Source: a virus
Virus record (IMG/VR): IMGVR_UViG_3300033388_006651
Coordinates: 32,001 to 96,000 of that record
Direction: 5' to 3' (one strand)
DNA length: 64,000 nucleotides
Shown here: piece by piece, positions 30,965-54,201 of the stretch
Layout: the number at the start of each line of letters is the position of its first letter
How positions within the stretch are numbered: position 1 is the first letter of the stretch
Program-made: the position numbers and the translations under genes
Notes under the pieces: model-generated
The model's input: only the letters and a program-made list of their open reading frames with translations
What the model was told of the DNA's origin: nothing
Databases searched by the model: none

Positions 30965-31621
30965 CCCCTCATGTAGAGCTTGGCTCGCATTGTCTTGTCC
31001 GTGTTGTGGTCGTGGACGGTGTCGCGTTGGATGGCGATTGTCCGGACCTTGTCCCCTCGAGCTCCACCACCGATCTGCTTGCGCCGCTTGGAGTTCCGCT
31101 CTTTGACGCGCTTGGTGGTGCCGGCAACCAGCAGTCGAGCCCGTAGGACCTCTCGTGCTGTCTGTCGGTTGATGGGCTGGCTCCGGCCGCCGTCGACCCG
31201 AACTTTGATGCCCGAGGGCCTGTGGACCAGGATGACGCAGGTATCGGTTTTGTTCCGATGCTGGCCGCCGGGCCCACTGCCGCGAGTGAAGGACTCATCC
31301 AGATCGCGCTCGTCGAGCTCGACCTCGTGGGCCTTCGGTTCTTGCAGGACCGCGACCGTCACCGTGCTGGTGTGGACGCGACCTCGCTTTTCGTTGGGTG
31401 GTACGCGTTGGAAACGGTGACCGCCTGCTTCGTGGCAGAACGCAATGTCAGCGTTCTTGCCGGAGATGCGCATCAGCAAAAAGCCGGCGCGCTCCTCTAG
31501 CAGTTCGTGGTCAAAGGTGCTCCAAAGAACAGTACCGGGTGTAGATGCGATACTGTTCCTGGACCAGATTTTTGGCGTCTTCGCCGCCTTCTGCGGCACG
31601 AATTTCTACGAGAATGCTCAT
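30943..31621 (-). CDS. Class-I peptide chain release factor homolog (about 225 aa, no domain 1) made by a +1 programmed frameshift
   Basis: MSILVEIRAAEGGEDAK..EHL-TGA; GGAG-CAC-CTT-TGA-C at 31523-31510; +1 frame has HRFQRVPPNEKRGRVHTS and GSGPGGQHRNKT. Confidence 0.88.
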
Positions 31622-32330
31622 GACTACTGTCTCTTTCAGCCCCGAACAGCATCGCTTTGGCAAGCTCTGCAAACGAGGACACGGTTACGAGGATACTGGA
31701 AAAAGTCTTCGGTTCAAATCGAACGGAAGTTGTGTGATGTGTGTCCGGGAATCGAGCGCTCAGTACCACCAGGAGCACAAGGACGAGATCCACGCTCGGG
31801 CAAAAGGGTGGCGTGCTGAGAACAAAGAATTTCTTCGTGAGAAGATGAAAGGGTACGAGAAACAGTACGGGAAGACCAAACGGGGACAGGAGGTCCGCCT
31901 TCGAGCTCGAAGATCACGGAAAGCCGAGGGACGGGATAAGATCACCCGCGATAAATACCGTCGAACCAAAAAAGGCCGTGAGTCTCAGCGCCGGTGTAAT
32001 GCCCGTTGGAGAATGCGAAAAGCCGAACAGGCCGGTGAGGTAACCCAAAATTACAAGGATGCAATGCTGGAAGCTCTCGACCATTGTTGCCCGGTTTGCG
32101 GAATCCGTTTTCACATGGGCCCCGAGCGCGTTCCAGAACAGTTGACCTGGGATCACGTTGTACCTCTCAGTGAGGATGGCTGCGATGATGACGCTAACCT
32201 GCTTCCCCTCTGCCGACGATGCAATTGTACGAAAGGCGAACGTGGGTTTGAAATATGGCTCCAGCGTCCTATCCGCTGCATCGCAGATTTGCGGGAACCC
32301 TGGCTAAGGGAAGAGATGTTTGGTGGATGA
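31620..32330 (+). CDS. HNH homing endonuclease
   Basis: CKRGH N-terminus; CPVC..WDHVVP..NLLPLCRRCNCTK. Confidence 0.8.
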   Translation: MTTVSFSPEQHRFGKLCKRGHGYEDTGKSLRFKSNGSCVMCVRESSAQYHQEHKDEIHARAKGWRAENKEFLREKMKGYEKQYGKTKRGQEVRLRARRSRKAEGRDKITRDKYRRTKKGRESQRRCNARWRMRKAEQAGEVTQNYKDAMLEALDHCCPVCGIRFHMGPERVPEQLTWDHVVPLSEDGCDDDANLLPLCRRCNCTKGERGFEIWLQRPIRCIADLREPWLREEMFGG

Positions 32331-32348
32331 CATGATGAAGTACTTTAG

Positions 32349-32422
32349 TGAGCCCAGAAGGATTTGAACCTTCGACCGTCGGATTAAAAGTCCGTTGCTC
32401 TACCAGACTGAGCTATGGGCCC
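32349..32422 (-). tRNA. tRNA-Lys(UUU)
   Basis: Cloverleaf; anticodon loop CTTTTAA; GGTTCAAATCC. Confidence 0.9.
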
Positions 32423-32450
32423 AAAGAAAAGGTGAAATGAAAAAATCGGC

Positions 32451-32840
32451 TTGGGGTATGCTGAGAATATGAGGTCGTTCTTCCGAAAATTGCTGACGAG
32501 GATTGGGTTTTTGTCCGAGCCTCTGCCCCGGCCCAAAATCTCCTTTAACCTCAGTAGACAAGAGCGGTTGGATTTCCTTTCAGAGCATGGAGGGCGAACC
32601 GAGAAGAGTCTTACCGCGCTTATGAATACCCACGGCCCGCATGAAGCCTTAGCCTGCTTGACGGGATCGGAGTTGTTCGGGGTCCAGCAAAGTCGGGTGG
32701 GGGTGCCGTCGAAACTCTTTACCCTCGTCTGCTTGGGAATCACAAACCAGAATGGGGAAATGACTAGCTTTGGGCTAACTTTCGCCTATGCCTTGCAGGA
32801 GCACCCCATCCAAGCCGTGCTTGAAGGCTCTATCATCTGA
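32451..32840 (+). CDS. Hypothetical protein, opposite strand to the Lys cluster
   Basis: ORF only. Confidence 0.4.
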   Translation: MGYAENMRSFFRKLLTRIGFLSEPLPRPKISFNLSRQERLDFLSEHGGRTEKSLTALMNTHGPHEALACLTGSELFGVQQSRVGVPSKLFTLVCLGITNQNGEMTSFGLTFAYALQEHPIQAVLEGSII

Positions 32841-32851
32841 GCTATGAGCCG
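32827..32851 (-). pseudogene. Orphan 5' half of a tRNA (acceptor strand and D arm)
   Basis: CGGCTCA-TA-GCTC-AGATGATA-GAGC with no anticodon or T arm. Confidence 0.5.
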
Positions 32852-33279
32852 AATTCAAGTTTCTTGTACCAGCCAAGCGTTCTGGCCGTTTTTTTCCGGT
32901 GACAGTTTGCGCACCGGATCTCACATTTGAGGATTTCTGCTGCTACGCGTTTCCAGGATGCGTCTCGGATCATTTTGGACACGTTGCCTTTTTTCTTGCC
33001 CCGGACATGATCAAAGTCCAAAACAATTGGATCATCTTCACCGCAGTCCACACAGGGATGTGCTTCCAGATACTCCAAAGAACGCCTGTAGTTTTCCCGT
33101 TTCAGATTCAGAGCGGATTGCCGTACCGCAGCGCGTGTTTTGGGGCTCTTTCGGTAATGCTTTTTAGATGCCTCACTTGCACAGGCTTTGCATAGAGACT
33201 GAAGGCCGTCTCGTTTTTGTGCGTTTTTGTAGAACTCTGCACGTTTCTTTTCACTTTTGCATTTAGGGCAGGTCTTCAT
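32842..33279 (-). CDS. HNH endonuclease
   Basis: CPKC; CVDCG..LDFDH..CANCHR. Confidence 0.85.
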   Translation of the reverse strand: MKTCPKCKSEKKRAEFYKNAQKRDGLQSLCKACASEASKKHYRKSPKTRAAVRQSALNLKRENYRRSLEYLEAHPCVDCGEDDPIVLDFDHVRGKKKGNVSKMIRDASWKRVAAEILKCEIRCANCHRKKTARTLGWYKKLEFGS

Positions 33280-33295
33280 TTCTCCATCTTAGCGG

Positions 33296-33368
33296 TGAGC
33301 CACCCGGGAGTCGAACCCGGCTTGACGGGGTAAAAACCCGTTGCAATAAACCGCTCTGCCAATGGCCC
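33296..33368 (-). tRNA. tRNA with UUU (Lys) anticodon and atypical body
   Basis: ACGGG-TTTTTAC-CCCGT; GGTTCGACTCC; D arm GGCAGAGCGGTTTATTGC. Confidence 0.7.
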
Positions 33369-33370
33369 TT

Positions 33371-33439
33371 TGGGGGCCAGCAGATCACAGCCGTTGCGGG
33401 GTAAAAACCCGACGTAACAAACCACTGTACTACCGGCCC
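33371..33439 (-). tRNA. Degenerate tRNA-Lys(UUU)-like RNA with a reduced T arm
   Basis: GGGCCGG/CTGGCCC acceptor followed by CCA; same CGGG-TTTTTAC-CCCG arm; no TTC loop. Confidence 0.5.
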
Positions 33440-33494
33440 AAGGTTGGAGCGGGAGTACGTTTGAGTGTGTCGTGATGGAGATACATGGTGTCCT

Positions 33495-33647
33495 TTAGCG
33501 GCGAACAGGCCGTGTGGAAAAGTGATGCCCGCAACTGGAGCAGAGGTAAGGTAACGGTGGCCTCCGACGCCTCCAACGTGGCTGGGTGCAGAGTGTCGTG
33601 TCAGTGCTTTCGCACTTCGGACATGGGGGTATGGGCTTGGAATCCAT
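33495..33647 (-). CDS. Small Zn-ribbon protein
   Basis: MDSKPIPPCPKC..CSSC. Confidence 0.4.
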   Translation of the reverse strand: MDSKPIPPCPKCESTDTTLCTQPRWRRRRPPLPYLCSSCGHHFSTRPVRR

Positions 33648-33657
33648 CGTTTTGTAG

Positions 33658-33730
33658 TGAGCCAGGGTGGAATTGAACCACCGCATCCGGGTTAAGAATC
33701 CGACGCTCTAACCAACTGAGCTACTGGCCC
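33658..33730 (-). tRNA. tRNA-Lys(CUU)
   Basis: Loop TTCTTAA; GGTTCAATTCC. Confidence 0.85.
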
Positions 33731-33819
33731 TAAATGGCAGCAGGTTCACGGCACGACGCAACGCCGACGTGTCTGCTACCCGTGATCGGCATCGGTCTTT
33801 CGTACCGTGCCGATCACGT

Positions 33820-33896
33820 TGGTGAGCGGGGAGGGATTTGAACCCTCGACCCAGTGATTAAGAGTCACTTGCACAACCAGACTGTGCTTCCCGCCC
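33820..33896 (-). tRNA. tRNA-Lys(CUU)
   Basis: AGTGA-CTCTTAA-TCACT; CCA end. Confidence 0.88.
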
Positions 33897-33949
33897 GGAG
33901 ATGATTCGCTACTACGCCCGTAAAGGACGGAGCGATCCATCCCCACGGG

Positions 33950-33982
33950 CTACAGCTTGGATTTCAGTTTCATGCAGAACAT
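33950..33982 (-). CDS. Lys-rich leader peptide MFCMKLKSKL
   Basis: Lies between the promoter and the first tRNA-Lys; AAA, AAA, AAG. Confidence 0.55.
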   Translation of the reverse strand: MFCMKLKSKL

Positions 33983-33992
33983 GATGTGTTCC

Positions 33993-34021
33993 GTTCTAGG
34001 GGAGCAAGACGGCGAAGTCAA
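33993..34021 (-). promoter_or_regulatory. Sigma70-like promoter for the Lys tRNA cluster
   Basis: TTGACT-17-TAGAAC. Confidence 0.6.
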
Positions 34022-34126
34022 GCACCTCATTCAATTTTTCCTGGGGATCACCGAACGCCTCCCCAGGTGCCCGAACATCATTGAGAAAAGCAACGGTTCC
34101 CAACACGGCTGCGTAAAAAGAAGGCC

Positions 34127-34927
34127 ATGGAAACTCTTGCAGCGATCCCCATCATCCCCGACAACGCAGCCGGGTACTCCACCATCGCCAACGCCAAGAA
34201 CGCTCTGGACAAGGCTCAGATGCCAGATGGCTCTGTCAGTCTGTTCCTCCTCGTGCACCATTTTCTGGAGGGGATGCCCGAGGCTATCGCAGGTACTCGC
34301 GCTCTTCCGGGCACGCGTGGCCCAAACTCCACAGAGTCACCCCTCTTCGACAAGATTTTCCATGTCCCTCTCCCCTGGAAAGGTGGGGATGTAGACCTCC
34401 CCGAAGAAAGAAACCCCGTTGCTTTACTCAAGGCGCTGGATCGGTCCGGCAACCTGACGGCCCCGTACAAGACGGACATCGTGGTCTACGATCATGCGGA
34501 TCGCGGCACCCTCAAGATCACCCAGTGGCACGCTGATGACCCTCGTGGTGAACACCCCCACAATCATCCTTGGGCGGACGAGGAGCACACGAGTTTCGTC
34601 AGCTACATTGTTCGTGGCGGCTACACCGAGACGATCACCGACAACAACGGGGAGACCACGAGTCGTGATTACCGAGCTGGGGACCTCAACATCGCCAAGT
34701 ACACGGACTTTCACGCGGTCAACAACATTCTGCCCGGCACCTTGACCATCCTCATGTGTGCCCCCCGAGCAGTGGTCAAAGAAAAGGGAACGGAGTGGGG
34801 CTACCTGCTGTTTGAGGAGGGTCGTTCCGAACGGGTGGGCATGAACGATCCCCGGGTGAAAGATGAGACGTTCTTGCAGCGCGCGGCCGTGCAAAACGCG
34901 TCGCTGCGTTTCATCTACAAGAAGTAG
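34127..34927 (+). CDS. Cupin-like protein
   Basis: HPHNHPW..GGYTE..FH.V. Confidence 0.6.
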   Translation: METLAAIPIIPDNAAGYSTIANAKNALDKAQMPDGSVSLFLLVHHFLEGMPEAIAGTRALPGTRGPNSTESPLFDKIFHVPLPWKGGDVDLPEERNPVALLKALDRSGNLTAPYKTDIVVYDHADRGTLKITQWHADDPRGEHPHNHPWADEEHTSFVSYIVRGGYTETITDNNGETTSRDYRAGDLNIAKYTDFHAVNNILPGTLTILMCAPRAVVKEKGTEWGYLLFEEGRSERVGMNDPRVKDETFLQRAAVQNASLRFIYKK

Positions 34928-34936
34928 CGCAACCGG

Positions 34937-35308
34937 TCACGCGTACTCAAGACCCCGAGCGTAAAGCCGCGCTCGACCGCCGACGATCTTGCCGACAAGT
35001 TCGTCGGCCCCGACCACGGGACGTTCTCCGCTGACCGTGACGAAGTGATCGAAACGGTATGGGTCATAGGTGATACGACGCCAGCCCCGAGTGGAGGGGG
35101 CCGTCTTCGGAGCCCGGTCTTCACCCCGAACCCCGGCGTGGACATTTTTGCGTTTCTCTCGGATGACACGCTGACGCCCCGACTCGCTCACGGAGAACTT
35201 CACGTTCTCCAGGTGAACGAAGTCGGCATGGCGTTGGACACGGGTGCCTCGACGCACCGAGTAGCGGTCCTTGTGGAGGTTCCAGTAGACGTAAACGCGT
35301 CCAGGCAC
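34937..35308 (-). CDS. Hypothetical phage protein (paralog of 50200-50574)
   Basis: YWNLH..NVHAGVRG. Confidence 0.65.
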   Translation of the reverse strand: MPGRVYVYWNLHKDRYSVRRGTRVQRHADFVHLENVKFSVSESGRQRVIREKRKNVHAGVRGEDRAPKTAPSTRGWRRITYDPYRFDHFVTVSGERPVVGADELVGKIVGGRARLYARGLEYA

Positions 35309-35311
35309 CTC

Positions 35312-35665
35312 CTACTCTACCGGCTGAATCAGGGACGCGTAGGAGAGCAGTTCGCAGTAGATCTGTTCGCAGAACAGGAACAGCTCCAGGTGGTCTTCAC
35401 CCCTCTCCGGGCGCCAGTCTCGGGCGAACGTGAGGTAGTACGCTTGGCGAGCGCGCTCGAACACTTGTAGGTAGTCGAGGAAGGTTCTGTAGGAGGTGAC
35501 TTGCCCCTGGCGCTCCAAGGTCGCCTCCCGCAGCTCCTTGGCGGCTCTGTATTTGCGATTCGCCCGAGCGGGGTCCCCTCTGAACTCGGTGGCTACGTGC
35601 ACGGGGGTGAACTCACCCACCGTGATCACGCTGTCCCAGTCGCTGTCTTCGTTTTCGTCGCTCAT
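35312..35665 (-). CDS. Hypothetical protein
   Basis: ORF. Confidence 0.5.
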   Translation of the reverse strand: MSDENEDSDWDSVITVGEFTPVHVATEFRGDPARANRKYRAAKELREATLERQGQVTSYRTFLDYLQVFERARQAYYLTFARDWRPERGEDHLELFLFCEQIYCELLSYASLIQPVE

Positions 35666-35715
35666 ACCCCCTAGACGGATGGGCCTCAGAAAACTCCCCT
35701 CTTTCCTCAGATTTT

Positions 35716-35991
35716 TTAGAGGAGCCCCAGTTCCCGAAGCTGCTCACGAAAAGACCACTCGGAAAGTACCTCCTGACGTGACCGCGGCTCTGACCATTTC
35801 CAGGATTTGACCGCACGCCCGTTAAAACGACGAGGGTTCCCACAACCTGAACAGCTACACCACGCCAAGTTGTCGGCGTACTGAGCAGCGACCCGAGTCA
35901 ACTCAGGCTCCTCCACTCCCCAGCGTTCATTCATCCGGTACGCACGGGCCACCATGCGTTGACGGTGATGACGACGAAGCGCCCTAGACAT
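35716..35991 (-). CDS. Small Cys-motif protein (tandem paralog)
   Basis: MSRALRRHH..CSCSGCGNPRR. Confidence 0.6.
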   Translation of the reverse strand: MSRALRRHHRQRMVARAYRMNERWGVEEPELTRVAAQYADNLAWCSCSGCGNPRRFNGRAVKSWKWSEPRSRQEVLSEWSFREQLRELGLL

Positions 35992-36292
35992 CGACCCATC
36001 CCCGAAGCTCATCAAGCTCCTCTTGAAGCTCAGCTTCCGCCTGTTGCTCAGGAATGGTGAGCGGTGAGTACCAACCCCCACGACGGGGGTTCCCGCAACC
36101 GTGGTAGAGTTTTGAGCAGACCTTGAGGTGGTCGTGGTACTTGACGGCCCGAGAGTCGGCCAGGGTGTGATCCGGGCAGGTGAGAGGGTCGTTCCAGTCT
36201 TGGTCGTAGGAGCTATGCCAACGACGGGTGACGGTACGGGCTTTTGCGATCATGCGATCGCGATGATGACGGCGGAGTGCTCGTTGGGACAT
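35984..36292 (-). CDS. Small Cys-motif protein (tandem paralog)
   Basis: MSQRALRRHH..CSK..GCGNPRR. Confidence 0.6.
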   Translation of the reverse strand: MSQRALRRHHRDRMIAKARTVTRRWHSSYDQDWNDPLTCPDHTLADSRAVKYHDHLKVCSKLYHGCGNPRRGGWYSPLTIPEQQAEAELQEELDELRGWVDV

Positions 36293-36347
36293 GCAGGGCT
36301 TTCGGCCCCAGCCCGGTCCTGAGAAGCACTATGCAGCTCAAGCCGGG

Positions 36348-36563
36348 CTAAGGCGTGATCTGCTTGTCCGGCGGATCGTCCATCTCCAACGCGAGACCCA
36401 CGAGCGTCTTTTTTCCATCGCGCTCAGCCATGCTGTTCATAAACTGGTCCCAAGGGACCGCACGCTTCGGAGGCGCTCCGACGAAGATGTACATCTCATG
36501 GCGTTCGGTGCCCGAGAGCATTTCGTCGAGCTCGGCGATGCCGGTTTTGAGTTCCTCAGCCAT
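36348..36563 (-). CDS. Short protein resembling a RecA/DnaB-fold N-terminal fragment
   Basis: LKTGIAELDEMLSG..LALEM. Confidence 0.4.
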   Translation of the reverse strand: MAEELKTGIAELDEMLSGTERHEMYIFVGAPPKRAVPWDQFMNSMAERDGKKTLVGLALEMDDPPDKQITP

Positions 36564-36596
36564 TCGTGAAAAGACTGCCCGACTATTACACTCGTG

Positions 36597-37604
36597 TCAA
36601 GAAGGGCAGAACGTGACGGTGTAGTTCACCAGGCCATTGGTTTTGCGGCAGTTGAAGGTCGCGGCTTTGTCATCGAACATCCAGGCGTACACCTGGGGAC
36701 AGCTCGCTTTGACGTTGGCGATGTAGCTCTGGCTCGTCGCATCCCAGGCCCGAGCTTTGTTGCTGTCCCAGGGGTTGCAGGTCTGGCCCTCCGGGTTGGG
36801 AGGGGTGCTGTAGGGAGAGCACCCGTAGGCGCACTTGGCGTCCCCACAAACGATCGGTTTCGACATCGAGCACGAGCAGCACAGCTTCGTCTGAGTGCTC
36901 GCAGGGTCCCCGCTGTTGACCGCGTTCTGGCACGGGCTCCAGCAGCTATCCCCTCCGGCGCTCAGACCACTGGGGCACGTCGGGGTCGAGGTGCAGCCCG
37001 ACACCGTGCACCACGGAGCCTGGAGACCAGGATCGGGTACGGGGTTGAAGGTCCCAGCAACGGCCACGATGGCGACAGGCTCGCTCCACCCGTCCACGAA
37101 GCTCACGTCGTAGGTGTCGTACGGACCCAGTCCTCCCATGGCATCGAAGGTGAACTCGGCGATCCCCACGGGAGCTTTCCCCGAGTAGGCGCACTCGAGC
37201 CCGAAGGTCTTGTTGTCCGAGGTGAGGCACGATCCGCTGGTGCAGCACGGCGTGAAGCCGTCGCACAGGTTCTGGTTGTTGAAGGTGCAACCGGTACGGG
37301 GCCAGATGCGACCGCTCCATCCCACGTCCACTTGGAGGGTCGTGGTGTCGGTGCCAGATCCGGCCGCTCCCATCTCCCAGCCACCGTTGTTGAGCCCGCT
37401 GAACCCGCTGTTGCCGACCGAGCCGACCCACACAGAGCTGGTGCACTTGTTGACGAAGTTCACCGTGTGCGTGGTCGGCGGGGTCCCCATGTCCAGTTTG
37501 GCCACTTCCGTGGGGGGATCAACGGCTGCTTCGCCGTCGGATCCTTTACAGGCAACCAGGGCCAGAGAGAACGCACCGAGGGACCAGAGTTTGCGAGCCA
37601 TCAC
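36597..37604 (-). CDS. Thaumatin-like (PR-5) lipoprotein
   Basis: Lipobox LVAC; FVNKC..VWVG, WSGRIWPRTGC, AEFT, YDVSFVDG, CPQVYAWMFDD, YTVTFCP. Confidence 0.85.
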   Translation of the reverse strand: MMARKLWSLGAFSLALVACKGSDGEAAVDPPTEVAKLDMGTPPTTHTVNFVNKCTSSVWVGSVGNSGFSGLNNGGWEMGAAGSGTDTTTLQVDVGWSGRIWPRTGCTFNNQNLCDGFTPCCTSGSCLTSDNKTFGLECAYSGKAPVGIAEFTFDAMGGLGPYDTYDVSFVDGWSEPVAIVAVAGTFNPVPDPGLQAPWCTVSGCTSTPTCPSGLSAGGDSCWSPCQNAVNSGDPASTQTKLCCSCSMSKPIVCGDAKCAYGCSPYSTPPNPEGQTCNPWDSNKARAWDATSQSYIANVKASCPQVYAWMFDDKAATFNCRKTNGLVNYTVTFCPS

Positions 37605-37638
37605 TCAAGGAGGTCCTCATAGGGGTAAAAATGATGAC

Positions 37639-38844
37639 ATGCTCGTCCTGTTCCCGTCTGACCCTTTTGAGACCTACAAGCCCGAGCCGGACTACGTCCA
37701 GGAGATCGAGATCGCAAAAGAGTGCGGCCACGAGGTTGCCTTCATCCATTGGGAAGCCCTGGTGAACGATGACGACGCTGCCGCGGCCATCAGGAAGGTT
37801 CCTGTTTTCGAGGATTCCACCCCTGCCATCTACCGGGGTTGGATGCTGACCTCCGAGCAGTACGAGAAGCTCTACGCAGAGCTCCAGATCCATGACGTTG
37901 ATCTGTTGACCACTCCCGACGCCTACCGTAAGGCCCATGAGTTCCCTGGGTGGTACTTGGAGATCCCGAAAGCGACTCCGGCGTCGGCGATCATCCAGAA
38001 GCATGAGATCAGCATGGAGAGGCTGCTCAGCAGGGCCAAGGAGATGCTCGAACAGTACGAGCACGGCATCATCATCAAGGACTACGTGAAAAGTCGGAAG
38101 CACGAGTGGGAGGAGGCGTGCTTCATCCCCGATATGTCCAAAGCTGAGGTGGTGATCGCCAACTTCCTCGAGCGCCAGGGTGACGCTCTCCAAGGCGGCG
38201 TTGTGCTCCGGGAGTTCGTGCCGCTCAAGTCGATCGGTAAGCACCCTGACTCGGGGATGCCAATGGGCGAGGAGTTCCGCATCTTCTGGATGAACGGTCG
38301 AGTGGCCGCCGCTGCGGAGTACTGGCCTTCCGAGTTCTACATCGGTGAGGAGCGTGAAGATGAGAACGCAGGTGACGGGAGCACGTACCGTGTGCCTCAT
38401 GCCCTGAGCACTCTCCCCGATCCACAGTCGCTTCTCGAACTCCTCGAAAACATCGACAACCCGTTCGTCTCGATGGACCTTGCGCGTGCCGAGGATGGTG
38501 AGTGGTTCGTCATGGAGATCGGCGACGGTCAGGTCTCTGGGCTCCCGCGCCCCAAGCTCGATGCCCGGCTCATTTACAGCCGGCTCGATCGGTTGCTCGG
38601 GCCTCCTGGGCTTGCCTCGGACGCGACACCGATGACCCAGGCACAGTTCGCCGGTATGACGTGCCACGCCGAAGGCTGCGACCACACCGGCCACGACACC
38701 GAGATGTACCTGCACCCCAAGTGCCACGTCGGTTCTCCGACCTGGGCGATTTACGAGGACGGCGTCATCAACGTGAAGTGTGCCGAGTGCAAGACGCTCG
38801 TGGTCAGAATCGCGGTTGACCCCGGTACGGTCGTCGAAGATTAG
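37639..38844 (+). CDS. ATP-grasp domain protein (R2K-like) with C-terminal Cys/His domain
   Basis: YRGWML, IIKDYVKSRKHEW, EFRIF, SMDLA, MEIGDGQVSGLP. Confidence 0.75.
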   Translation: MLVLFPSDPFETYKPEPDYVQEIEIAKECGHEVAFIHWEALVNDDDAAAAIRKVPVFEDSTPAIYRGWMLTSEQYEKLYAELQIHDVDLLTTPDAYRKAHEFPGWYLEIPKATPASAIIQKHEISMERLLSRAKEMLEQYEHGIIIKDYVKSRKHEWEEACFIPDMSKAEVVIANFLERQGDALQGGVVLREFVPLKSIGKHPDSGMPMGEEFRIFWMNGRVAAAAEYWPSEFYIGEEREDENAGDGSTYRVPHALSTLPDPQSLLELLENIDNPFVSMDLARAEDGEWFVMEIGDGQVSGLPRPKLDARLIYSRLDRLLGPPGLASDATPMTQAQFAGMTCHAEGCDHTGHDTEMYLHPKCHVGSPTWAIYEDGVINVKCAECKTLVVRIAVDPGTVVED

Positions 38845-39050
38845 AGGGCGTGGTCTCGAATGGCCTTGGTCAGCCGGCGCACTTTATTGGTGAAAATAGA
38901 GTAGAACCGGGGGTCCACTTCGTGCAGGAGATGGAGGAGAGATTCGATCTCGGCCTCGGCATCTTCCTGGTCCACGATGTTCTTGGCGACGGCACGGGTG
39001 CAGTCGGGCTGAGAGGTGAGCCAGTGGTTGATGCGTTCTTCGTAAGTCAC
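38841..39050 (-). CDS. Small hypothetical protein
   Basis: ORF. Confidence 0.4.
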   Translation of the reverse strand: MTYEERINHWLTSQPDCTRAVAKNIVDQEDAEAEIESLLHLLHEVDPRFYSIFTNKVRRLTKAIRDHAL

Positions 39051-39119
39051 GATCTAGGTGTATCGCAGGGTCTTGATCCGCCTCGGATCAAGCGCCGTCG
39101 AGAAAGTTGAAGAATTCGT

Positions 39120-39148
39120 TTGACTCGGCGTCTTAGTCCGCGTACACA
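39120..39148 (+). promoter_or_regulatory. Sigma70-like promoter for the main tRNA operon
   Basis: TTGACT-17-TACACA. Confidence 0.55.
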
Positions 39149-39195
39149 GAAATGGTCGCCGTCCCTTGGCAGGAACGCGACTCAAAGTCCCCGCC

Positions 39196-39288
39196 ATGAA
39201 ACACTCCACGACATACACAGCTACGACAACGACTACGGTCGTCGTGGCCGTCGTATTGCCCATTATGGGCGATATGACCTCGTGTTGA
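39196..39288 (+). CDS. Thr-rich (thrL-like) leader peptide MKHSTTYTATTTTTVVVAVVLPIMGDMTSC
   Basis: 8 Thr codons in codons 5-14; followed by hairpins and three tRNA-Thr genes. Confidence 0.7.
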   Translation: MKHSTTYTATTTTTVVVAVVLPIMGDMTSC

Positions 39289-39380
39289 GCATTTCCCGGC
39301 GTTGACCAAAACATCAAACGGCGCCGGGAACCCCCAAAGGGTTTGCTTCGCACGTTCAAAGGCCACGCTGGCTCCCATTC

Positions 39381-39456
39381 GCCGGTGTAGCTCAATTGGT
39401 AGAGCACTGGTTTTGTAAACCAGGGGTTGCGGGTTCGAGTCCCATTACCGGCTCCA
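39381..39456 (+). tRNA. tRNA-Thr(UGU)
   Basis: CTGGT-TTTGTAA-ACCAG; CCA. Confidence 0.9.
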
Positions 39457-39487
39457 AGTATTTCTCTTCACCCAAGGAACAGACAAC

Positions 39488-39562
39488 GCCTTTGTAGCTC
39501 AGTGGTAGAGCAGCTCATTCGTAACGAGCAGGTCGTGGGTTCGATTCCCACCTTGGGCTCCA
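39488..39562 (+). tRNA. tRNA-Thr(CGU)
   Basis: Loop TTCGTAA; CCA. Confidence 0.88.
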
Positions 39563-39564
39563 AG

Positions 39565-39606
39565 CACCAACACCAACACCAACACCAACACCAACACCAT
39601 CACCGA
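39565..39606 (+). repeat. (CACCAA)5 plus CACCAT and CACCGA
   Basis: Read directly. Confidence 0.9.
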
Positions 39607-39611
39607 CATAA

Positions 39612-39686
39612 GCCCTTGTAGCTCAGTGGAAGAGCGCTTCCTTGGTAAGGAAGAAGTCACGAGTTCGATTCTCGTCTTGGGCTCCA
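39612..39686 (+). tRNA. tRNA-Thr(GGU)
   Basis: CTTCC-TTGGTAA-GGAAG; CCA. Confidence 0.9.
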
Positions 39687-39837
39687 GGAACGCAGGACCC
39701 TCGTTCGAAGGTCACAAGCAAAAGGTAAAGACATCTGTTTTTCACACAGAAGACTGCGAGTTCGATTCTCGCCTTCCCCGCCATTTATGGGGAAGTGGTC
39801 ATAAGACGCACTCACCCCGCACACTCTCCTGCGTTCC
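39687..39837 (+). ncRNA. Module RNA A: circularly permuted tRNA-Glu(UUC), broken in the D loop, inside an 11-bp outer stem
   Basis: GGAACGCAGGA/TCCTGCGTTCC; TCACAAGCA; anticodon arm, T arm, CTTCCCC-G-CCA, TTTAT, GGGGAAG-TG-GTC; CACTC. Confidence 0.75.
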
Positions 39838-39998
39838 TTAATTTTCACCCTAATCCCAGCGCCTCGTAGAGCGAGGCACACGACAGCAGCTTCGCTTCGA
39901 GGCGAAAATGGCAGGCGACCGGACGGCCTGTGGGATCAAACAACCGATTTTTCTCAACCCCAACTTCAACCCCCAACGAACAGAAAGGACCGAGCACG

Positions 39999-40136
39999 AT
40001 GAACATCGAAAACGATGACTGCGATGATGTAGATGATACCTACGGAGCAGTGGCGCAGTTGGTAGCGCACTCGGTTGTCAGCCGAAAGGTCGCCGGTTCA
40101 AGTCCGGTCTGTTCCGCCAAGGGGGTGTTGGTCTAG
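39999..40136 (+). CDS. Asp-rich leader ORF reading into the tRNA-Asp genes
   Basis: AAAGGA SD; MNIENDDCDDVDDTY then the tRNA. Confidence 0.55.
   Translation: MNIENDDCDDVDDTYGAVAQLVAHSVVSRKVAGSSPVCSAKGVLV
40044..40119 (+). tRNA. tRNA-Asp(GUC)
   Basis: Loop TTGTCAG; GCCA end. Confidence 0.88.
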
Positions 40137-40198
40137 TTGGTTATGACGCTTCCCTGTCACGGAAGAAATCGCGGGTTCAAGTCCCGCACATCCCGCCA
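40122..40198 (+). tRNA. tRNA-Asp(GUC)
   Basis: CTTCC-CTGTCAC-GGAAG; GCCA end. Confidence 0.9.
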
Positions 40199-40204
40199 TT
40201 TTTT

Positions 40205-40279
40205 AGTCCTGTAGCTCAGTGGAAGAGCATTCCCGTCACATGGGAGAGGCCATCGGTTCGACCCCGATTGGGACTACCA
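40205..40279 (+). tRNA. tRNA-Val(CAC)
   Basis: Loop GTCACAT; ACCA end. Confidence 0.85.
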
Positions 40280-40288
40280 AGAAAACAT

Positions 40289-40363
40289 AGCTCCGTAGCT
40301 CAGTGGCAGAGCAACACCTCGACATGGTGAAGGTCGTCGGTTCGATCCCGACTGGGGCTACCA
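40289..40363 (+). tRNA. tRNA-Val(GAC)
   Basis: Loop TCGACAT; ACCA end. Confidence 0.88.
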
Positions 40364-40422
40364 ACACAACAAGTTACTAAGACACAAGGCCCTCCGTTCC
40401 ATTTTGTGCTACGCTCAGAAGA

Positions 40423-41097
40423 GTGAAGCCGGACAAACAAAAAGAGGCGCGTAGACTGCGTAAGCAGGGCCTTTCTTTGAGTGAGATCGTTACCAAAATT
40501 GGATGCGCAAAAAGTTCGGTTAGCCGCTGGACCCGGGATATCCCTCTCACTAAGACTCAAGTCAAAAACCTTCGACGAAAGGAAGATCAAGGACGACTTA
40601 AAGGCCGTATTGCAGCCGCTACCCATCCCAACTCTCCGAAACAGGTGTGGGCTAAAAAACGAGATGAAGCACGTCAAAAAGGGCACGAAGAGATTTCCCG
40701 GATCGATGACATCTCTCTCAAAATACTCATCGCGGCACTGTACTGGGGGGAAGGGTCAAAGGGTCGTAACAGTTTTTCCATAGCGAACACGGACCCTGCA
40801 ATGGTCCGCCTTATTGCCGCCTTTCTTCGAAAACATTGTCAAGTTCCTGAAGAGCGCCTTCGTTTTCGCGTCTACATTCATCCTCATTTGAGTCTCCGAA
40901 AAGCTCGTATTTACTGGGCTAAAATTGCAGGAACCTCCCCTAAAAATATCGCATCCACCACCGCTGTAAGCTCAGCTAGCCAAGGAAAGAAGGACTCGTG
41001 CCCTTACGGCACTTTTCAAATCACGTACTGTGACACCCTGTTTCGGTCTCGCATAGAAGGCTGGATGGATGCCTTGAAAGAACAGATACCGGGTTAG
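40423..41097 (+). CDS. HTH plus LAGLIDADG-like protein inside the tRNA array
   Basis: GLSLSEIVTKIGCAKSSVSRW; LYWGEG..NTDP; stop codon lies inside tRNA-Val. Confidence 0.7.
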   Translation: MKPDKQKEARRLRKQGLSLSEIVTKIGCAKSSVSRWTRDIPLTKTQVKNLRRKEDQGRLKGRIAAATHPNSPKQVWAKKRDEARQKGHEEISRIDDISLKILIAALYWGEGSKGRNSFSIANTDPAMVRLIAAFLRKHCQVPEERLRFRVYIHPHLSLRKARIYWAKIAGTSPKNIASTTAVSSASQGKKDSCPYGTFQITYCDTLFRSRIEGWMDALKEQIPG

Positions 41098-41161
41098 CTC
41101 AGTGGTAGAGCGCTGCCCTTACAAGACGGATGCAAGAGTTCAATTCTCTTACCCGGTACCA
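41088..41161 (+). tRNA. tRNA-Val(UAC)
   Basis: Loop CTTACAA; ACCGGGT/ACCCGGT; ACCA end. Confidence 0.8.
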
Positions 41162-41201
41162 GACCTCAAACCTCAACCTCTAACCACGAAAGGAACCGAC
41201 C

Positions 41202-41264
41202 ATGGAAAAAGAAGACAGCGACATTAGCGACATTATCTACTCGGCCCGTGGTCCAGTCTGGTAA
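41202..41264 (+). CDS. Ile-containing leader peptide MEKEDSDISDIIYSARGPVW reading into tRNA-Ile
   Basis: AAAGGAA SD; ATT, ATT, ATC just before the tRNA. Confidence 0.5.
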   Translation: MEKEDSDISDIIYSARGPVW

Positions 41265-41316
41265 TGGATGTCGCTCTGATAAGGCGAAGACGGAGGTTCA
41301 AATCCTCCCGGGCCGA
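41242..41316 (+). tRNA. tRNA-Ile(GAU)
   Basis: TCGCT-CTGATAA-GGCGA. Confidence 0.82.
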
Positions 41317-41326
41317 CCGACTACAT

Positions 41327-41403
41327 GGACGTGTAGCTCAGTTGGTTAGAGCGCAGCCCTGATAAGGCTGAAGTCGAAAGTTCAAATCTTTCTACGTCCA
41401 CCA
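41327..41403 (+). tRNA. tRNA-Ile(GAU)
   Basis: CAGCC-CTGATAA-GGCTG; CCA. Confidence 0.9.
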
Positions 41404-41424
41404 AGAGATTTCCAAAACACATAT

Positions 41425-41499
41425 AGCGGGATGGCGCAGTCAGGTAGCGCGCTGGGCTCATAACCCAGAGGTCGTCGGTTCAAATCCAACTCTCCGCTA
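41425..41499 (+). tRNA. tRNA-Met(CAU), initiator-like
   Basis: CTGGG-CTCATAA-CCCAG. Confidence 0.8.
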
Positions 41500-41505
41500 C
41501 TAAGG

Positions 41506-41663
41506 GCAGTAGAAGTCTGCTTGCGAAATATCTCCCTTCACCGGGAAGAGACGCTAGCGAACAAAACTTCATCCTCGCAACGGAGTTGAGGGGAGAGCAG
41601 TAGGAGATCTGCTTGCGACAATAGGCCCCGTAACTGGGTATCGAAGATAGCGAACAAAACTCC
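41506..41663 (+). ncRNA. Tandem pair of an unidentified structured RNA motif
   Basis: GCAGTAGRAG(A)TCTGCTTGCGA..TAGCGAACAAAACTYC twice, with GAAG/CTTC versus GGAG/CTCC covariation. Confidence 0.6.
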
Positions 41664-41672
41664 AACACTTGA

Positions 41673-41750
41673 CGCGGGTTGGGGAAGTCCGGCCATCCCG
41701 GTGGGCTCATAATCCACAGACCCTCGGTTCAAATCCGAGACCCGCTACCA
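41673..41750 (+). tRNA. tRNA-fMet(CAU)
   Basis: C1:U72 mismatch; CTCATAA loop; CCA. Confidence 0.85.
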
Positions 41751-41809
41751 AATCCAGTTCGACAGTGTGCGCCCGTGCGAGCCGAACCGAGTGTAGAAAC
41801 GGGCCTCAT

Positions 41810-41887
41810 GCCAGAATAGCTCAGTTGGTTAAGAGCGCTCCCCTCATAAGGGAGAGGTCATCGGTTCAAATCCGATTTCTGGTACCA
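41810..41887 (+). tRNA. tRNA-CAU (elongator Met or Ile2)
   Basis: CTCCC-CTCATAA-GGGAG; CCA. Confidence 0.88.
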
Positions 41888-42041
41888 CAAGAAACCAAGA
41901 AGCCATGAACATCCACCTGAAACAGTTGCCCATCGGCACGGCCAGTCGCATCTCGTTGTTTGCGGCCGGACAGGTGTGTTCTGCCTATCTCCCCAATCTG
42001 GAGACAGGTAGCGGATAACCCTCAGCTCGATCATGGCGCCT

Positions 42042-42077
42042 AAAAGCCCGTCGAGCTCCCTGCTCGCCGGGCTTTTT
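42042..42077. terminator. Intrinsic, probably bidirectional terminator after the tRNA operon
   Basis: AAAAGCCCG...CGGGCTTTTT. Confidence 0.7.
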
Positions 42078-42245
42078 CGTGCTCGGGCCAAGGATCAACG
42101 GCCCTCTCGAGCCCTTTTTCGCCAAACCCTCCCTGGGCCCTCCTTTTCGGACATTTTCACGAACTTTTCACGAACCAAACCAACCACGGGGTACAAGGGA
42201 CGAGCCCGAGTGCTCTGCTTTTCACGAATCAGGACAGACAAGCCA

Positions 42246-44114
42246 ATGGACAACAAAGAAACACTCGGACCCGCAGAGACCATCATCCAGTCACTGCTGG
42301 CCTACTCAGATCACATCTACCACGGCCGCCCCGGCGTCGTGGTGCCCGACGCGCGATCCACGACCGGAGTGCGATGGGACCCCGTCACCCACAAGGTCGG
42401 AGAGGACGGCGTCAAGACCGTTCTTCGCCTCACGCGAAACGGCAAGAAGACCATTCGTACCGAGATCGGCACGATGAACGGCGACAATCGTGTGAAGAAC
42501 GCGGGTGCCGATGTCGGCCTGTACCGCAAGAGCGGCCTCTTCCCAGAGGTTGCCCTGTGGTTCTACAAGCAGATCGCTGAGGTGTGGACGCTCGACAACG
42601 AATTCGCTGCTCGGTGGGCGTCGTACGCCTTCCGTCAGGAGCACCGTGACCTCAAGGTCATGCTCGCTGCGTTCATGCTCGTTCAGTCGCGTAAGGGCGA
42701 CCCCGTCATGGACGGGGGTGAGCGTCTGTTCGACGACGAGGACTACCGTGACGTGGGCGAGGCCATGGTCCTTCTCCTTGAGAAGGGCAACGACCTCAAC
42801 CCGAAGCTCCTGCTTCGGATCTACGATGTCCTGAACCTGCCCGAGATCGCAAAGATCAACCACGAGCTCGGCTTCGGCAAGTCCGCCAAGCGTCCGTTCC
42901 TCGGTCGTTGGCCCAAGGCGATCGACAAGTACCTTCGGTACCGCGAGGAGAACCCGAAGCTGCTCGAAGGGCTCGTCAACAAGGCTGCTTTCGGCAACAC
43001 CGTCAAGACTCTGGCTCGGCGTATCGGCTACAAGCCAACGTCCGACAAGTTCTTCGCTACCCTACGCTGGAAGCAGAAGCAGGCTGAAGACGGGCGTCGT
43101 GAGATGGCCATCGGTAAAGCCGTGAGGGCTGCTGAGTCGTGGGATCACCTCGACGAAGCCGGTGTTTGCGAGCTCATCGAGAAGAACAAGCCTGGCTGGA
43201 AGCGGATCGTGGGTCTCCTTCCTGCGAAGATCGGGGTCACCCGTGCGGTGATGGCTGCGACCATCGAGTCGGGCGGTCTCTCGGACAAGGATCTCATCAT
43301 CCTCACTCCAACGATCGAGGATCTTGGTCTGTTCAAGGTCCAGGAGATCAAGGCGCGTCATGCTGCGGCTCTCGCCAAGGCAAGCGACATGCGTGCGGCT
43401 AACATCGCCCGCAACGTTCGGTCCAAGGATCTCAAGGAGGAGATGGAGACCGGTGCCGACAAGGCAGCTCAGAAGGCTGCTGAGGAGGTCATCAAGAACC
43501 TGCGCCTCTACGTCGTCATCGACCGTTCGGCGTCGATGCAGGGAGCACTGGAGAAGGCGAAGCCACTGATCGCCAAGCTCATTCAGGCAATCCCAGCCGA
43601 GCGTCTGCACGTTTCGACGTTCAACACGATCGGTAAGGTGATCACCTTCAAGCACCACTCGACCGCTGGGGTCGAGGCAGCTTTCCGGGGCGTCAACGCC
43701 GGAGGGGGCACGGTGCACGCAGAAGGTGTTCGGGTTCTGGCTCAGTTCCCGCCTGCGGCAGACGAGGACTCCCTGATGATCTTCATCGGGGACGAGGGCG
43801 AGCGTCGGCACTTTGCCGAAGCTGTGGAGGCATCTGGTCTCCGTCCCCTGGCCTTCGGGCTCCTCGCCACGGTGGGTCCTCGTTGGGGTCGCGGTCAGGC
43901 GATTCGGGACACGGCTGCTCGACTGGACATCCCGTGCTTCGAGATCGATGACCGCACCTTTGATGGCGACCCGTACGCCATCCCGCGTACGATCAGGAAC
44001 CTGATCGCGGCTACCCCTGTGGGGGTGAACACCGGTCGTCGCGTCGTCCCGCGCGTGACGCTGGTGGGTCAGATCCTGGAGACCGAGATTCTCCAGAAGC
44101 CCAACTGGGCATAG
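42246..44114 (+). CDS. Helical-domain plus vWA protein, Ro60/TROVE-like
   Basis: C-terminal MIDAS DRSASM..GGT..IFIGDE after a long helical region; Ro60 assignment is inferred. Confidence 0.6.
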   Translation: MDNKETLGPAETIIQSLLAYSDHIYHGRPGVVVPDARSTTGVRWDPVTHKVGEDGVKTVLRLTRNGKKTIRTEIGTMNGDNRVKNAGADVGLYRKSGLFPEVALWFYKQIAEVWTLDNEFAARWASYAFRQEHRDLKVMLAAFMLVQSRKGDPVMDGGERLFDDEDYRDVGEAMVLLLEKGNDLNPKLLLRIYDVLNLPEIAKINHELGFGKSAKRPFLGRWPKAIDKYLRYREENPKLLEGLVNKAAFGNTVKTLARRIGYKPTSDKFFATLRWKQKQAEDGRREMAIGKAVRAAESWDHLDEAGVCELIEKNKPGWKRIVGLLPAKIGVTRAVMAATIESGGLSDKDLIILTPTIEDLGLFKVQEIKARHAAALAKASDMRAANIARNVRSKDLKEEMETGADKAAQKAAEEVIKNLRLYVVIDRSASMQGALEKAKPLIAKLIQAIPAERLHVSTFNTIGKVITFKHHSTAGVEAAFRGVNAGGGTVHAEGVRVLAQFPPAADEDSLMIFIGDEGERRHFAEAVEASGLRPLAFGLLATVGPRWGRGQAIRDTAARLDIPCFEIDDRTFDGDPYAIPRTIRNLIAATPVGVNTGRRVVPRVTLVGQILETEILQKPNWA

Positions 44115-44125
44115 GAGTAAACCTC

Positions 44126-45058
44126 ATGGGATGGAGAGACCTAATCACAACCAAGGAGGAGACCACCACTCTTCCGTGGACCGGAGGACGGTCTCTCCAC
44201 TCCGGGTCCCGAACCTTCAAGCTCGGGGCCCGGCCTCGGGACTTTGGCTGGTACACCTTCGACCTCGAAGGCAACAAGGCCAAGGACCCGAAGCCCGCTG
44301 ACCCAGTTCCTGAGATTCTCAAGAGCTCCGTCAAGGGCTATCTGGTCGGGGACCGTCTGGTCCCCGATGACACCCGGATCGATCCCGACCCGGCCAAGAT
44401 CATCAACTACTCGGAGAAGGTCTACCTCCTTCCCGAAGAACTCGACCGGTTCTCGCGTGTGCGAGCCGGCCGCATTTACCCCGAGGGGCCTCTCATTTTT
44501 CTTGAGCAGGAATTCCCCCTCGGCCCCGAGGACGAAGTCATGGAAGCATTCTTCGACAACAAGATCAGCACCTTCGGTATCCGAAGCGTCGCGCCCGCAC
44601 TCGATGCGGCTTTCCGTATGGAGGTCTACCAGCGTCAGCAGGCAGAGTTCCGTCGGCAAGAACTGATCCGGCTTCGTGCCGAGGAGGAGGCACGTCTTGC
44701 CAAGGAGGAGCGCCGCAAGGAGATGATCGAGAAGCTCGGGGATGGCGCTGGCCGTCGTGCGATGGCCCAGGAAAACTTCGGTGAAGCCGCTCGGGCTGCC
44801 CTCATGGTCGGTGGTGCTCAGTACCTCGACCACCGAAAGGGAGGGCGTAAAGGTGAATGGGTCGTCAAGTATCGCGTCGATGGGCAACGCCTTGAGTGCG
44901 TGTGCGACACCAACCTCCAGATCATCGACGCAGGCGTTTGCCTTGTCGATCACGGAACCAACGAAAAGGGCGACACCTACTTCACCCTCGAATCACTGCC
45001 TGCGGTCATCCGTCAGGCCATCCGCGAGCACAAGCTCGTCGTATGGAGACACATCTAA
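44126..45058 (+). CDS. Hypothetical protein, possible E2-like C-terminal domain
   Basis: AGGAG SD; IIDAGVCL resembles the E2 G.iCL site; operon context. Confidence 0.5.
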   Translation: MGWRDLITTKEETTTLPWTGGRSLHSGSRTFKLGARPRDFGWYTFDLEGNKAKDPKPADPVPEILKSSVKGYLVGDRLVPDDTRIDPDPAKIINYSEKVYLLPEELDRFSRVRAGRIYPEGPLIFLEQEFPLGPEDEVMEAFFDNKISTFGIRSVAPALDAAFRMEVYQRQQAEFRRQELIRLRAEEEARLAKEERRKEMIEKLGDGAGRRAMAQENFGEAARAALMVGGAQYLDHRKGGRKGEWVVKYRVDGQRLECVCDTNLQIIDAGVCLVDHGTNEKGDTYFTLESLPAVIRQAIREHKLVVWRHI

Positions 45059-45633: not shown

Positions 45634-45635
45634 TC

Positions 45636-46267: not shown

Positions 46268-46280
46268 CCGAAGACACCGT

Positions 46281-49380: not shown

Positions 49381-49414
49381 CCCAGACCGCGCCCTCGAAA
49401 CTACCTACAACTAA

Positions 49415-49680: not shown

Positions 49681-49716
49681 AACTTTTTCACTCAGCAGCA
49701 GTACACAACATAACAT

Positions 49717-49978: not shown

Positions 49979-49986
49979 AACTTTTC

Positions 49987-53680: not shown

Positions 53681-53757
53681 GGTGTCCGTAGCTCAGTTGG
53701 TAGAGCGTTCGCTTGTGACGCGAGAGGCCGCGGGTTCAAACCCCGTCGGACACCCCA
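53681..53757 (+). tRNA. tRNA-His(GUG)
   Basis: G-1:C73; loop TTGTGAC; CCA. Confidence 0.9.
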
Positions 53758-53842
53758 AAAACCGCACTTCCGTGCAGTTTAGCTAGCCGAGGCTTCCCTT
53801 CGTCTTTGGGACGAAGTGGAGCTTCGGCACGCCGCATTTTAT

Positions 53843-53917
53843 GCCGCGGAAGCTGACTTGGTACGCAAGCGCTGGACTGAAAATCCGGAGGTGACAGTTC
53901 GATTCTGTCCCGCGGCA
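53843..53917 (+). tRNA. tRNA-Phe(GAA)
   Basis: CTGGA-CTGAAAA-TCCGG. Confidence 0.85.
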
Positions 53918-53939
53918 CAACCTAGAAGGAAACAAGACA

Positions 53940-54134
53940 ATGTCACTCATGTTCACTAATTACGATCGCCACACCATGTGCACGCATGCTGGCCTCCTTG
54001 GTCAAAAGGCCAAGGACGGAACCCAGACGTGTGTTCGTTGCGGCAAGACGGTTCTCCCTGCAGATGTGGAGCGCTTTACGAGGCCGGCTGGACGCAAGTC
54101 CGGTCGGCAGACTCAAGGCACTACCCCTTTGTAG
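53940..54134 (+). CDS. Small CxxC protein ending inside tRNA-Phe
   Basis: AAGGA SD. Confidence 0.45.
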   Translation: MSLMFTNYDRHTMCTHAGLLGQKAKDGTQTCVRCGKTVLPADVERFTRPAGRKSGRQTQGTTPL

Positions 54135-54201
54135 CTGAGATAGATTCAAGCGCGCGGTTGAAGCCCGCGAGACTCGGGTGCGAGCACCGACTGAGGGACC
54201 A
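54125..54201 (+). tRNA. Divergent tRNA-Phe(GAA)
   Basis: CGCGG-TTGAAGC-CCGCG; non-canonical T loop; ACCA end. Confidence 0.65.

Follow-up and report, generated by a model that had tools for sequence, protein, structure and literature searches.

Cognate-codon leader reading frames in front of phage tRNA genes grouped by amino acid

Leader-peptide attenuators such as thrL, hisL, pheL, ilvL, trpL and the pheM leader of pheST contain a short open reading frame (ORF) with codons for the cognate amino acid, and the position of the ribosome on it picks one of several mutually exclusive helices. They are reportedly covered by Henkin and Yanofsky in 2002 (as cited in PMC4052509). Attenuation at the level of translation, as in ermC and cat, needs no terminator: the stalled ribosome exposes a functional site that was sequestered. 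Here we analyzed a tRNA locus of the virus record IMGVR_UViG_3300033388_006651, in which tRNA genes grouped by amino acid are preceded by ORFs carrying codons for the matching amino acid. The DNA under study, hereafter the window, is the whole 64,000-nucleotide (nt) stretch from positions 32,001 to 96,000 of that record, and coordinates are counted from its first letter.

The charging state of tRNA also feeds back on gene expression through T-box riboswitches (PMC4052509; 10.1101/2020.06.17.157016), and the stem-loops of the dnaX and HIV frameshift stimulators pause decoding at the ribosome entry channel (PMC7282821). Host defences that target tRNAs are offset by certain phage tRNAs (PMC10264068, PMC11555353, PMC11464382), jumbo phages carry tRNA arrays (PMC7824862), and phage tRNAs are known to be under pressure from anticodon nucleases (PMC10264068). 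It has long been asked why phages encode tRNAs at all, and the genes are mostly regarded as spares without regulation. A literature search, with subscription papers mostly outside its coverage, found no leader-peptide control of tRNA genes. The locus is real, conserved and unreported in the reachable literature, and its mechanism is one that we infer.

Leader reading frames of the tRNA groups

The window holds every tRNA gene of the parent contig, with genes for Lys, Thr, Asp, Val, Ile, CAU, His and Phe. A sequence-only reading had described tRNAs sorted by amino acid between positions 33950 and 41264, four of the groups having a leader rich in the matching residue. The set itself was recovered, with four Lys tRNAs plus one degenerate copy, three Thr, two Asp, three Val, two Ile and three CAU genes, although the Lys tRNAs (32348-33896) lie just outside that span. 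All four leader ORFs (Lys, Thr, Asp and Ile) are present; the Thr ORF has 30 codons rather than 14, and the peptides quoted for Asp and Ile were only the part before the tRNA. The His and Phe groups, said there to lack a clear leader, do have one, and a second Lys leader had been overlooked. None was found for the Met group, as had been stated, or for the Val group. The features are as follows.

33993..34021, minus strand: sigma70-like promoter of the Lys unit (-35 TTGACT, 17 nt, -10 TAGAAC; consensus match only)
33950..33982, minus strand: Lys leader 1, an ORF of 10 codons with AAA, AAA and AAG
33897..33950, minus strand: Lys switch region, with hairpin P at 33950-33916, whose first base is the G of the stop codon
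33820-33896 and 33657-33730, minus strand: two tRNA-Lys(CUU) genes (tRNA calls)
33430..33486, minus strand: Lys leader 2, an ORF led by a Shine-Dalgarno sequence (SD), with one AAA at -23 and its stop at nt 8 of the degenerate tRNA
33373-33439, minus strand: degenerate tRNA-Lys(UUU) with a broken T arm (tRNA call)
33294-33368, minus strand: tRNA-Lys(UUU) (tRNA call)
32348-32422, minus strand: tRNA-Lys(UUU) (tRNA call), no leader found
39120..39148, plus strand: sigma70-like promoter of the Thr-Asp-Val-Ile-Met unit (consensus match only)
39196..39288, plus strand: Thr leader, an ORF of 30 codons, with 7 homologous leaders
39281..39372, plus strand: stop-codon helix around a GC hairpin that lacks a U tract, followed by the lock strand 39361-39372 (fold z -4.8)
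39381..39686, plus strand: tRNA-Thr genes UGU, CGU and GGU (tRNA calls)
39983-39989, plus strand: SD of the Asp leader
39999-40136, plus strand: Asp leader, an ORF with six Asp codons at -30 to -9 from the first tRNA-Asp, through which it runs
40044..40363, plus strand: two tRNA-Asp genes and tRNA-Val CAC and GAC (tRNA calls)
40423..41161, plus strand: inserted ORF of 224 amino acids (aa) with a weak HTH match, ending inside tRNA-Val(UAC) at 41088-41161
41188-41194, plus strand: SD of the Ile leader
41202-41264, plus strand: Ile leader, an ORF with Ile codons at -19, -10 and -7 and its stop in the D-loop of the first tRNA-Ile
41242..41887, plus strand: two tRNA-Ile(GAU) and three CAU tRNAs (tRNA calls)
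53575-53602, plus strand: promoter-like site upstream of the His leader
53622-53786, plus strand: His leader, an ORF running through tRNA-His
53681..53918, plus strand: tRNA-His(GUG) with G-1, and tRNA-Phe(GAA) at 53843-53918, the latter missed by default ARAGORN
53940..54134, plus strand: Phe leader, a 64-codon Cys/His-rich ORF with its stop at nt 8 of tRNA-Phe
54125..54201, plus strand: tRNA-Phe(GAA) (tRNA call)

Related loci (about 170) were collected through homologs of a neighboring gene for a 622-aa protein. Within them, a close clade (L001, L002, L007/L138, L008, L110, L058, L065, L068 and L147) retains the order of the tRNAs, together with homologous Thr, Asp, Ile, His and Lys leaders. 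Compared with genome codon use, the binomial probability of the cognate content of the window leaders was 4e-8 for Thr (first 13 codons), 2e-5 for Asp, 3e-3 for Lys and 0.016 for Ile. The comparison with shuffled controls across related phages that the sequence-only reading had proposed came out in its favor: among SD-led ORFs reading into a tRNA, those of the close clade (n = 23) contain 84 cognate residues, against 33.9 in label shuffles, and those of the other relatives (n = 105) contain 158, against 97, with p<1e-4 in both cases. Enrichment in the distant relatives was driven chiefly by Asp and Lys(UUU) cases. Without the ORF filter no overall cognate enrichment was seen in these relatives, which indicates that most of their tRNAs have no such leader, and a universal leader signal across them was rejected for vanishing in this way.

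The identity of the codon run matches that of the tRNA in six amino-acid groups. Synonymous codons and third positions vary inside the runs, and the frame and the SDs are retained. Leader codons are more often GAU than GAC (39 vs 19), AUU than AUC (9 vs 4), CAU than CAC (6 vs 3) and AAA than AAG (23 vs 11), and the favored codons GAU, AUU, CAU, UUU and AAA are minority codons of the genome. These minority codons would probably slow first when a tRNA or its modification runs short, although the leaders counted are related to one another. We consider it very probable that the ORFs are cognate-codon sensors.

A shared register was also observed. In 10/10 non-redundant leaders the last Asp codon is GAU and begins 8 or 9 nt ahead of the tRNA, the run of His leaders ends at -9, and AUU stands at -10 in 5/5 Ile leaders, some with an extra one at -7. 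The final AAG of Lys leader 1 begins 8 nt before its hairpin, a spacing identical in 8/8 homologs, and an invariant UUU of the Phe leader (54075-54077) lies 8 nt before a GC hairpin (54083-54108), again 8 nt in 6/6. Five amino-acid groups thus have their last or sole cognate codon starting 8-10 nt before the next helix. In an ORF-free profile of the close clade, cognate enrichment peaked at -11 to -8 (ratio 1.93, p=0.0015) and was absent at -7 to -3. The stops of the read-in leaders are scattered from +8 to +226 inside the tRNAs, suggesting that passage of the ribosome matters and not the stop site. The bacterial mRNA channel accommodates 11 nt beyond P-site nt +1 on the downstream side, and binding to the A site is hindered by stems 11-12 nt away (PMC7282821). 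When a cognate codon at -8 to -10 occupies the A site, the acceptor helix would lie 11-13 nt from the first P-site nucleotide. The sensing codons appear to fill the zone in which a waiting ribosome would leave the tRNA intact, and to end where melting would start.

Other leaders were noticed in relatives. Seen at L068 1033 and 1268, L167 2491, L170 7435 and L062 5568-5823, they comprise an ORF whose end encodes five Ala before tRNA-Ala, read-in ORFs containing Trp, a 9-codon AAA leader in the GenBank phage Rctr197k and, in L062, a series of His, Phe and Lys sensors along read-through ORFs. Pattern scans of viral contigs for the Asp and His units returned one known locus and one chance match only. 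The His leader of the window equals those of L007 and L147 in length; their three-His run is replaced or out of frame in the window, where it looks decayed. A Phe-rich frame before the tRNA-Phe at 53843 was rejected, having no start codon and no conservation. At 54942-55047 (plus strand), we also noted a tRNA-like sequence with an extra D-loop hairpin that both ARAGORN and Rfam missed.

RNA folds between leaders and tRNAs

The Thr leader is ordered as a Thr run using all four ACN codons, a Val run and a hairpin-forming Ile/Met/Asp tail. The lock strand can pair either with nt 1-8 of tRNA-Thr or with a key strand within the Val run (39241-39249). A consensus fold of six Thr homologs comprises a Thr:Val hairpin, a second hairpin, the stop-codon helix and a lock between the spacer and tRNA nt 1-8. 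This lock was found in 7/7 homologs examined (-10.9 to -15.2 kcal/mol), it tracks the tRNA sequence in L001 and L002, and that of the window ranks in the top 1.4% of 868 spacers. The modelled acceptor-stem cost in the window was 0-1 kcal/mol with the ribosome at leader codons 9-11, 5 kcal/mol on ribosome-free RNA, 4-7 kcal/mol at most later codons and 3-7 kcal/mol at nearly all other positions.

Two further observations concern the start of the Thr transcript: a 5' hairpin (39155-39182, plus strand) has a loop conserved across all homologs examined, and the leader lacks an SD, with an invariant 8-mer surrounding its ATG. The Thr ORF was also considered as a master leader for Val, Ile, Met and Asp and rejected, because its conserved codons take part in hairpins as well and tRNA-Thr stays locked when a stall is modelled on the Val run; these codons may act via Rho. 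A match to a Burkholderia phage covered only tRNA-Thr plus a few bases and was rejected.

In the Lys unit, the -10 box stands 10 nt from the ATG, making the first leader nearly leaderless, and the promoter arrangement is repeated in L001, L002, L138, L008 and L110. The 5' arm of hairpin P can alternatively pair with the spacer and tRNA-Lys nt 1-4 (helix L). Hairpin P is 87.5% paired and covaries, with 5 pairs changed on both sides. The second Lys leader precedes the UUU tRNAs, and L001 and L147 contain homologs of it; the idea that the degenerate Lys tRNA relays to the following tRNA was rejected, as its model was not clean. The UUU and GC hairpin of the Phe leader are retained in the window ORF and five homologous stretches, the hairpin has 4 pairs changed on both sides, and its covariation score was reached by 0/500 shuffles. 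The codon region pairs significantly with the tRNA D arm in 4/8 Lys and 2/6 Phe homologs, in neither case in the window.

Potential mutually exclusive helices overlapping the ORF are conserved for Thr and Lys, and none were found for Asp, Ile and His. Only the Thr ORF and the first Lys ORF stop upstream of the tRNA; those of Asp, Ile, His, Phe and the second Lys leader read in. Strong SDs precede the Asp and Ile ORFs, neither of which stops ahead of the tRNA, and the Asp ORF closes inside the second tRNA-Asp. The sequestered element is tRNA nt 1-8, rather than a protein gene's SD or start codon. A whole-fold shuffle test gave a modest positive result (Fisher p=4e-4 across 23 related sequences), significance being reached in few individual cases.

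The likeness to amino-acid attenuators that had been proposed holds for the conserved cognate-codon sensor and not for the output step. A terminator scan of 32000-42400 found no hairpin followed by a U tract between any leader and its tRNA, nor did homolog alignments have a U tract there. Rfam leader families (Thr_leader, His_leader and the like) gave no match, and no T-box RNA (RF00230) was matched at a permissive E-value. The leaders are not classical attenuators, because neither an intrinsic terminator nor an Rfam leader family lies between leader and tRNA, yet they appear to work alike at the sensor step.

A proposed tRNA-maturation feedback and its rivals

We propose that the pre-tRNA sits within a translated mini-mRNA, and that each tRNA group would have its own ribosome-based sensor, the leader ORF being translated. 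When cognate aminoacyl-tRNA is plentiful, the ribosome would run on. In the design suggested for Asp, Ile and His, the running ribosome would melt the tRNA itself; in that suggested for Lys, Thr and perhaps Phe, it would melt or mask a protecting helix, so that the lock strand pairs with the tRNA 5' end. A precursor melted or locked in this way would be a poor RNase P substrate and would decay. Under slow decoding, the ribosome would pause at the cognate codons and the helix would stay just beyond its entry channel; the cloverleaf would form and the tRNA would be cut out. The net result would be a negative feedback for each amino acid, releasing phage tRNA when its codons are under-served, whatever the cause. 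A stalling sensor of this type reads anticodon nucleases, amino-acid starvation and loss of tRNA modification alike. The geometry fits the direction of feedback first put forward, from slow decoding to more tRNA. We lean slightly towards tRNA folding and maturation being the output, with stalling raising it. The case is evenly balanced for the full proposal, in which the tRNA pool would be held steady amino acid by amino acid at maturation, the ribosome acting as both sensor and helicase and an 8-10 nt spacing, in at least two RNA designs and five groups, deciding whether the tRNA survives.

Several results weigh against this proposal. For Asp, Ile and His, pairing between leader and tRNA does not exceed chance, which makes the ribosome itself the likely effector there, and a general anti-acceptor lock in all read-in leaders was rejected (Mann-Whitney p=0.38). 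Helix L is 95% paired with 2 pairs changed on both sides, not above column shuffles, and in the window the Lys switch shows solely in the full-length model. The modelled Thr switch is clear in only 4/7 homologs, L110, L147 and L001 resembling the window and L002, L007 and L008 not clearly doing so. With a ribosome on the last codon, the RNase P site would be hidden under the ribosome itself, and a fold gate on the first tRNA leaves control of the second and third isoacceptors unexplained. Finally, the homologs share kinship, and their counts are not independent.

Control of whole isoacceptor blocks, together with the Val, Ile, Met and Asp codons in the Thr leader, would be better explained by transcription polarity, which has the same sensor and sign: read-through would leave unfolded RNA, Rho or a U-less hairpin with NusA would terminate, and a stall would switch the block on. 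C-rich, G-poor tracts before the Asp and Ile SDs and between the Thr tRNAs, and the GC hairpins after the Thr and Lys stops, would suit it. We nevertheless regard it as unlikely, since no U-tract terminator was found between the leaders and their tRNAs in 32000-42400, leader stop positions are not conserved, and separate leaders in mid-operon with locks complementary to the tRNA 5' end indicate the tRNA as target. The covered RNase P site raises the opposite sign, in which a ribosome stalled beside the tRNA blocks RNase P, so that tRNA is withheld in scarcity (avoiding uncharged tRNA and the stringent response) and freed after read-through. At -9 the cleavage site does lie at the channel entry, and extra tRNA would be useless in true amino-acid starvation. 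In Thr, Lys and Phe, however, 45-150 nt separate the stalled ribosome from the tRNA, which is free in the model upon stalling; cognate codons end at the point where melting would set in, and the majority of the Asp codons are 12-30 nt upstream. This reversal seems to us improbable.

The ORFs could also have no regulatory role, being relics or peptides with their own job, or the runs could be by-products of RNA structure or simple repeats. The decayed His run of the window, the degenerate first Lys(UUU), the resemblance of the Phe ORF to a small metal-binding protein and the lack of such a leader at most tRNAs of distant relatives would all fit that case. Against it stand the run identity that follows the tRNA in six groups, the kept SDs and frame with varying third positions, and the fixed register, and we give this explanation little credence. 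Least probable of all, in our view, is a stabilization of the ermC type, in which the stalled ribosome merely shields the precursor 5' end from nucleases and tRNA folding is not switched. It needs no leader-tRNA pairing for Asp and Ile, whose leaders lie directly behind the previous tRNA and would become 5' ends after processing, but it leaves the 8-10 nt register and the alternative helices of Thr and Lys unexplained.

Neighboring elements and related systems

The parent contig (146,769 bases, 59% G+C) encodes phage-type helicase, DNA polymerase, ligase and endolysin genes. It is probably a partial jumbo-phage genome, because its close relatives reach 213-618 kb. Homologs of the 622-aa gene among bacterial genome bins are mostly from Myxococcota, a weak host clue. 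In the stretch 42246-48280 (plus strand), the 622-aa protein is helical plus vWA, its low-confidence model matches Ro60/Rsr structures first, and LAGLIDADG and ThiF genes lie downstream of its gene. Between the divergent Lys and Thr promoters sit genes of the thaumatin family (36597-37604, minus strand) and the R2K ATP-grasp type (37639-38844, plus strand). A release-factor-like gene (30943-31621, minus strand) has RF-1 and PCRF domains, and its first 36 codons end in CTT TGA C after an SD-like GGAG, like the prfB +1 frameshift site; it could be a further ribosome-based feedback sensor.

Within the tRNA cluster, the 224-aa inserted ORF is probably a passenger. The leader-overlapped tRNA-Asp copies (40044-40119 in the window; L001 9013 and L002 9268) have non-canonical anticodon loops, with U32 and either G38 or G37/A38, and the second window copy is canonical; these odd loops may relate to nuclease resistance. 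C/A-rich, G-poor tracts that include a six-base repeat (39565-39610, 39950-39980 and 41163-41187, plus strand) are located between tRNAs and ahead of the SDs of the Asp and Ile leaders; they could serve as rut sites or as spacers for nuclease entry. Two related tandem hairpin elements of about 70 nt (41503-41665, plus strand), without an Rfam match, separate the first and second CAU tRNAs. Directly before the Ro60-like gene, an ORF of 37 codons and, behind it, a GC hairpin with a U tract (41905-42080, plus strand) may form an attenuator or the end of the tRNA transcript.

The cluster also contains, at 39687-39838 (plus strand), a permuted tRNA-shaped closed-stem RNA with the tRNA 3' half upstream of the 5' half. 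Its acceptor stem is loop-closed, and its anticodon is UUC in the window and CAU in L002. Kin occur at about 49400-50150 of the window (a shared short module), L002 9038-9182 and L007 2775-2930, and no YrlA (RF02553) match was obtained at the gathering score. The model of the 622-aa protein suggests that the permuted RNAs may be its Y-RNA-like partners (PMC4201824).

If the proposal is true, demand-sensing leaders make the replacement hypothesis of phage tRNAs testable for each amino acid, and leader-peptide sensing would gain a new output, the maturation of a tRNA as governed by ribosomes moving over its precursor. The 45-nt Asp unit would be a minimal part for tRNA-depletion reporters, for example in finding tRNAs cut by a defence nuclease.

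Compared with amino-acid operon attenuators, the Thr leader appears to have the same 1:2, 2:3 and 3:4 logic, its Thr codons pairing with Val codons. Unlike in those operons, the phage targets are tRNA genes, several of the ORFs enter the regulated gene, and the last helix clamps the tRNA 5' strand or is the tRNA, instead of being a terminator. Unmasking by a stalled ribosome without a terminator is shared with ermC and cat, whereas the phage site is a tRNA acceptor stem and RNase P substrate rather than an SD, and the stall would come from codon supply rather than from a drug. T-box riboswitches have charging feedback in common with this locus, which has no T-box RNA and would sense by translation. 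As in frameshift stimulators, a helix lies 11-13 nt from the first P-site nucleotide with the key codon in the A site, but the phage leaders have no slippery sequence and the helix is itself the regulated object. Like the phage tRNAs that offset host defences, this tRNA array adjoins RNA-repair-type genes, which gives the feedback a plausible purpose, although demand-driven control of phage tRNA genes is not described in the available parts of those papers. This locus brings together, within a single genome, terminator-free leaders for six amino-acid groups and a shared register of 8-10 nt.

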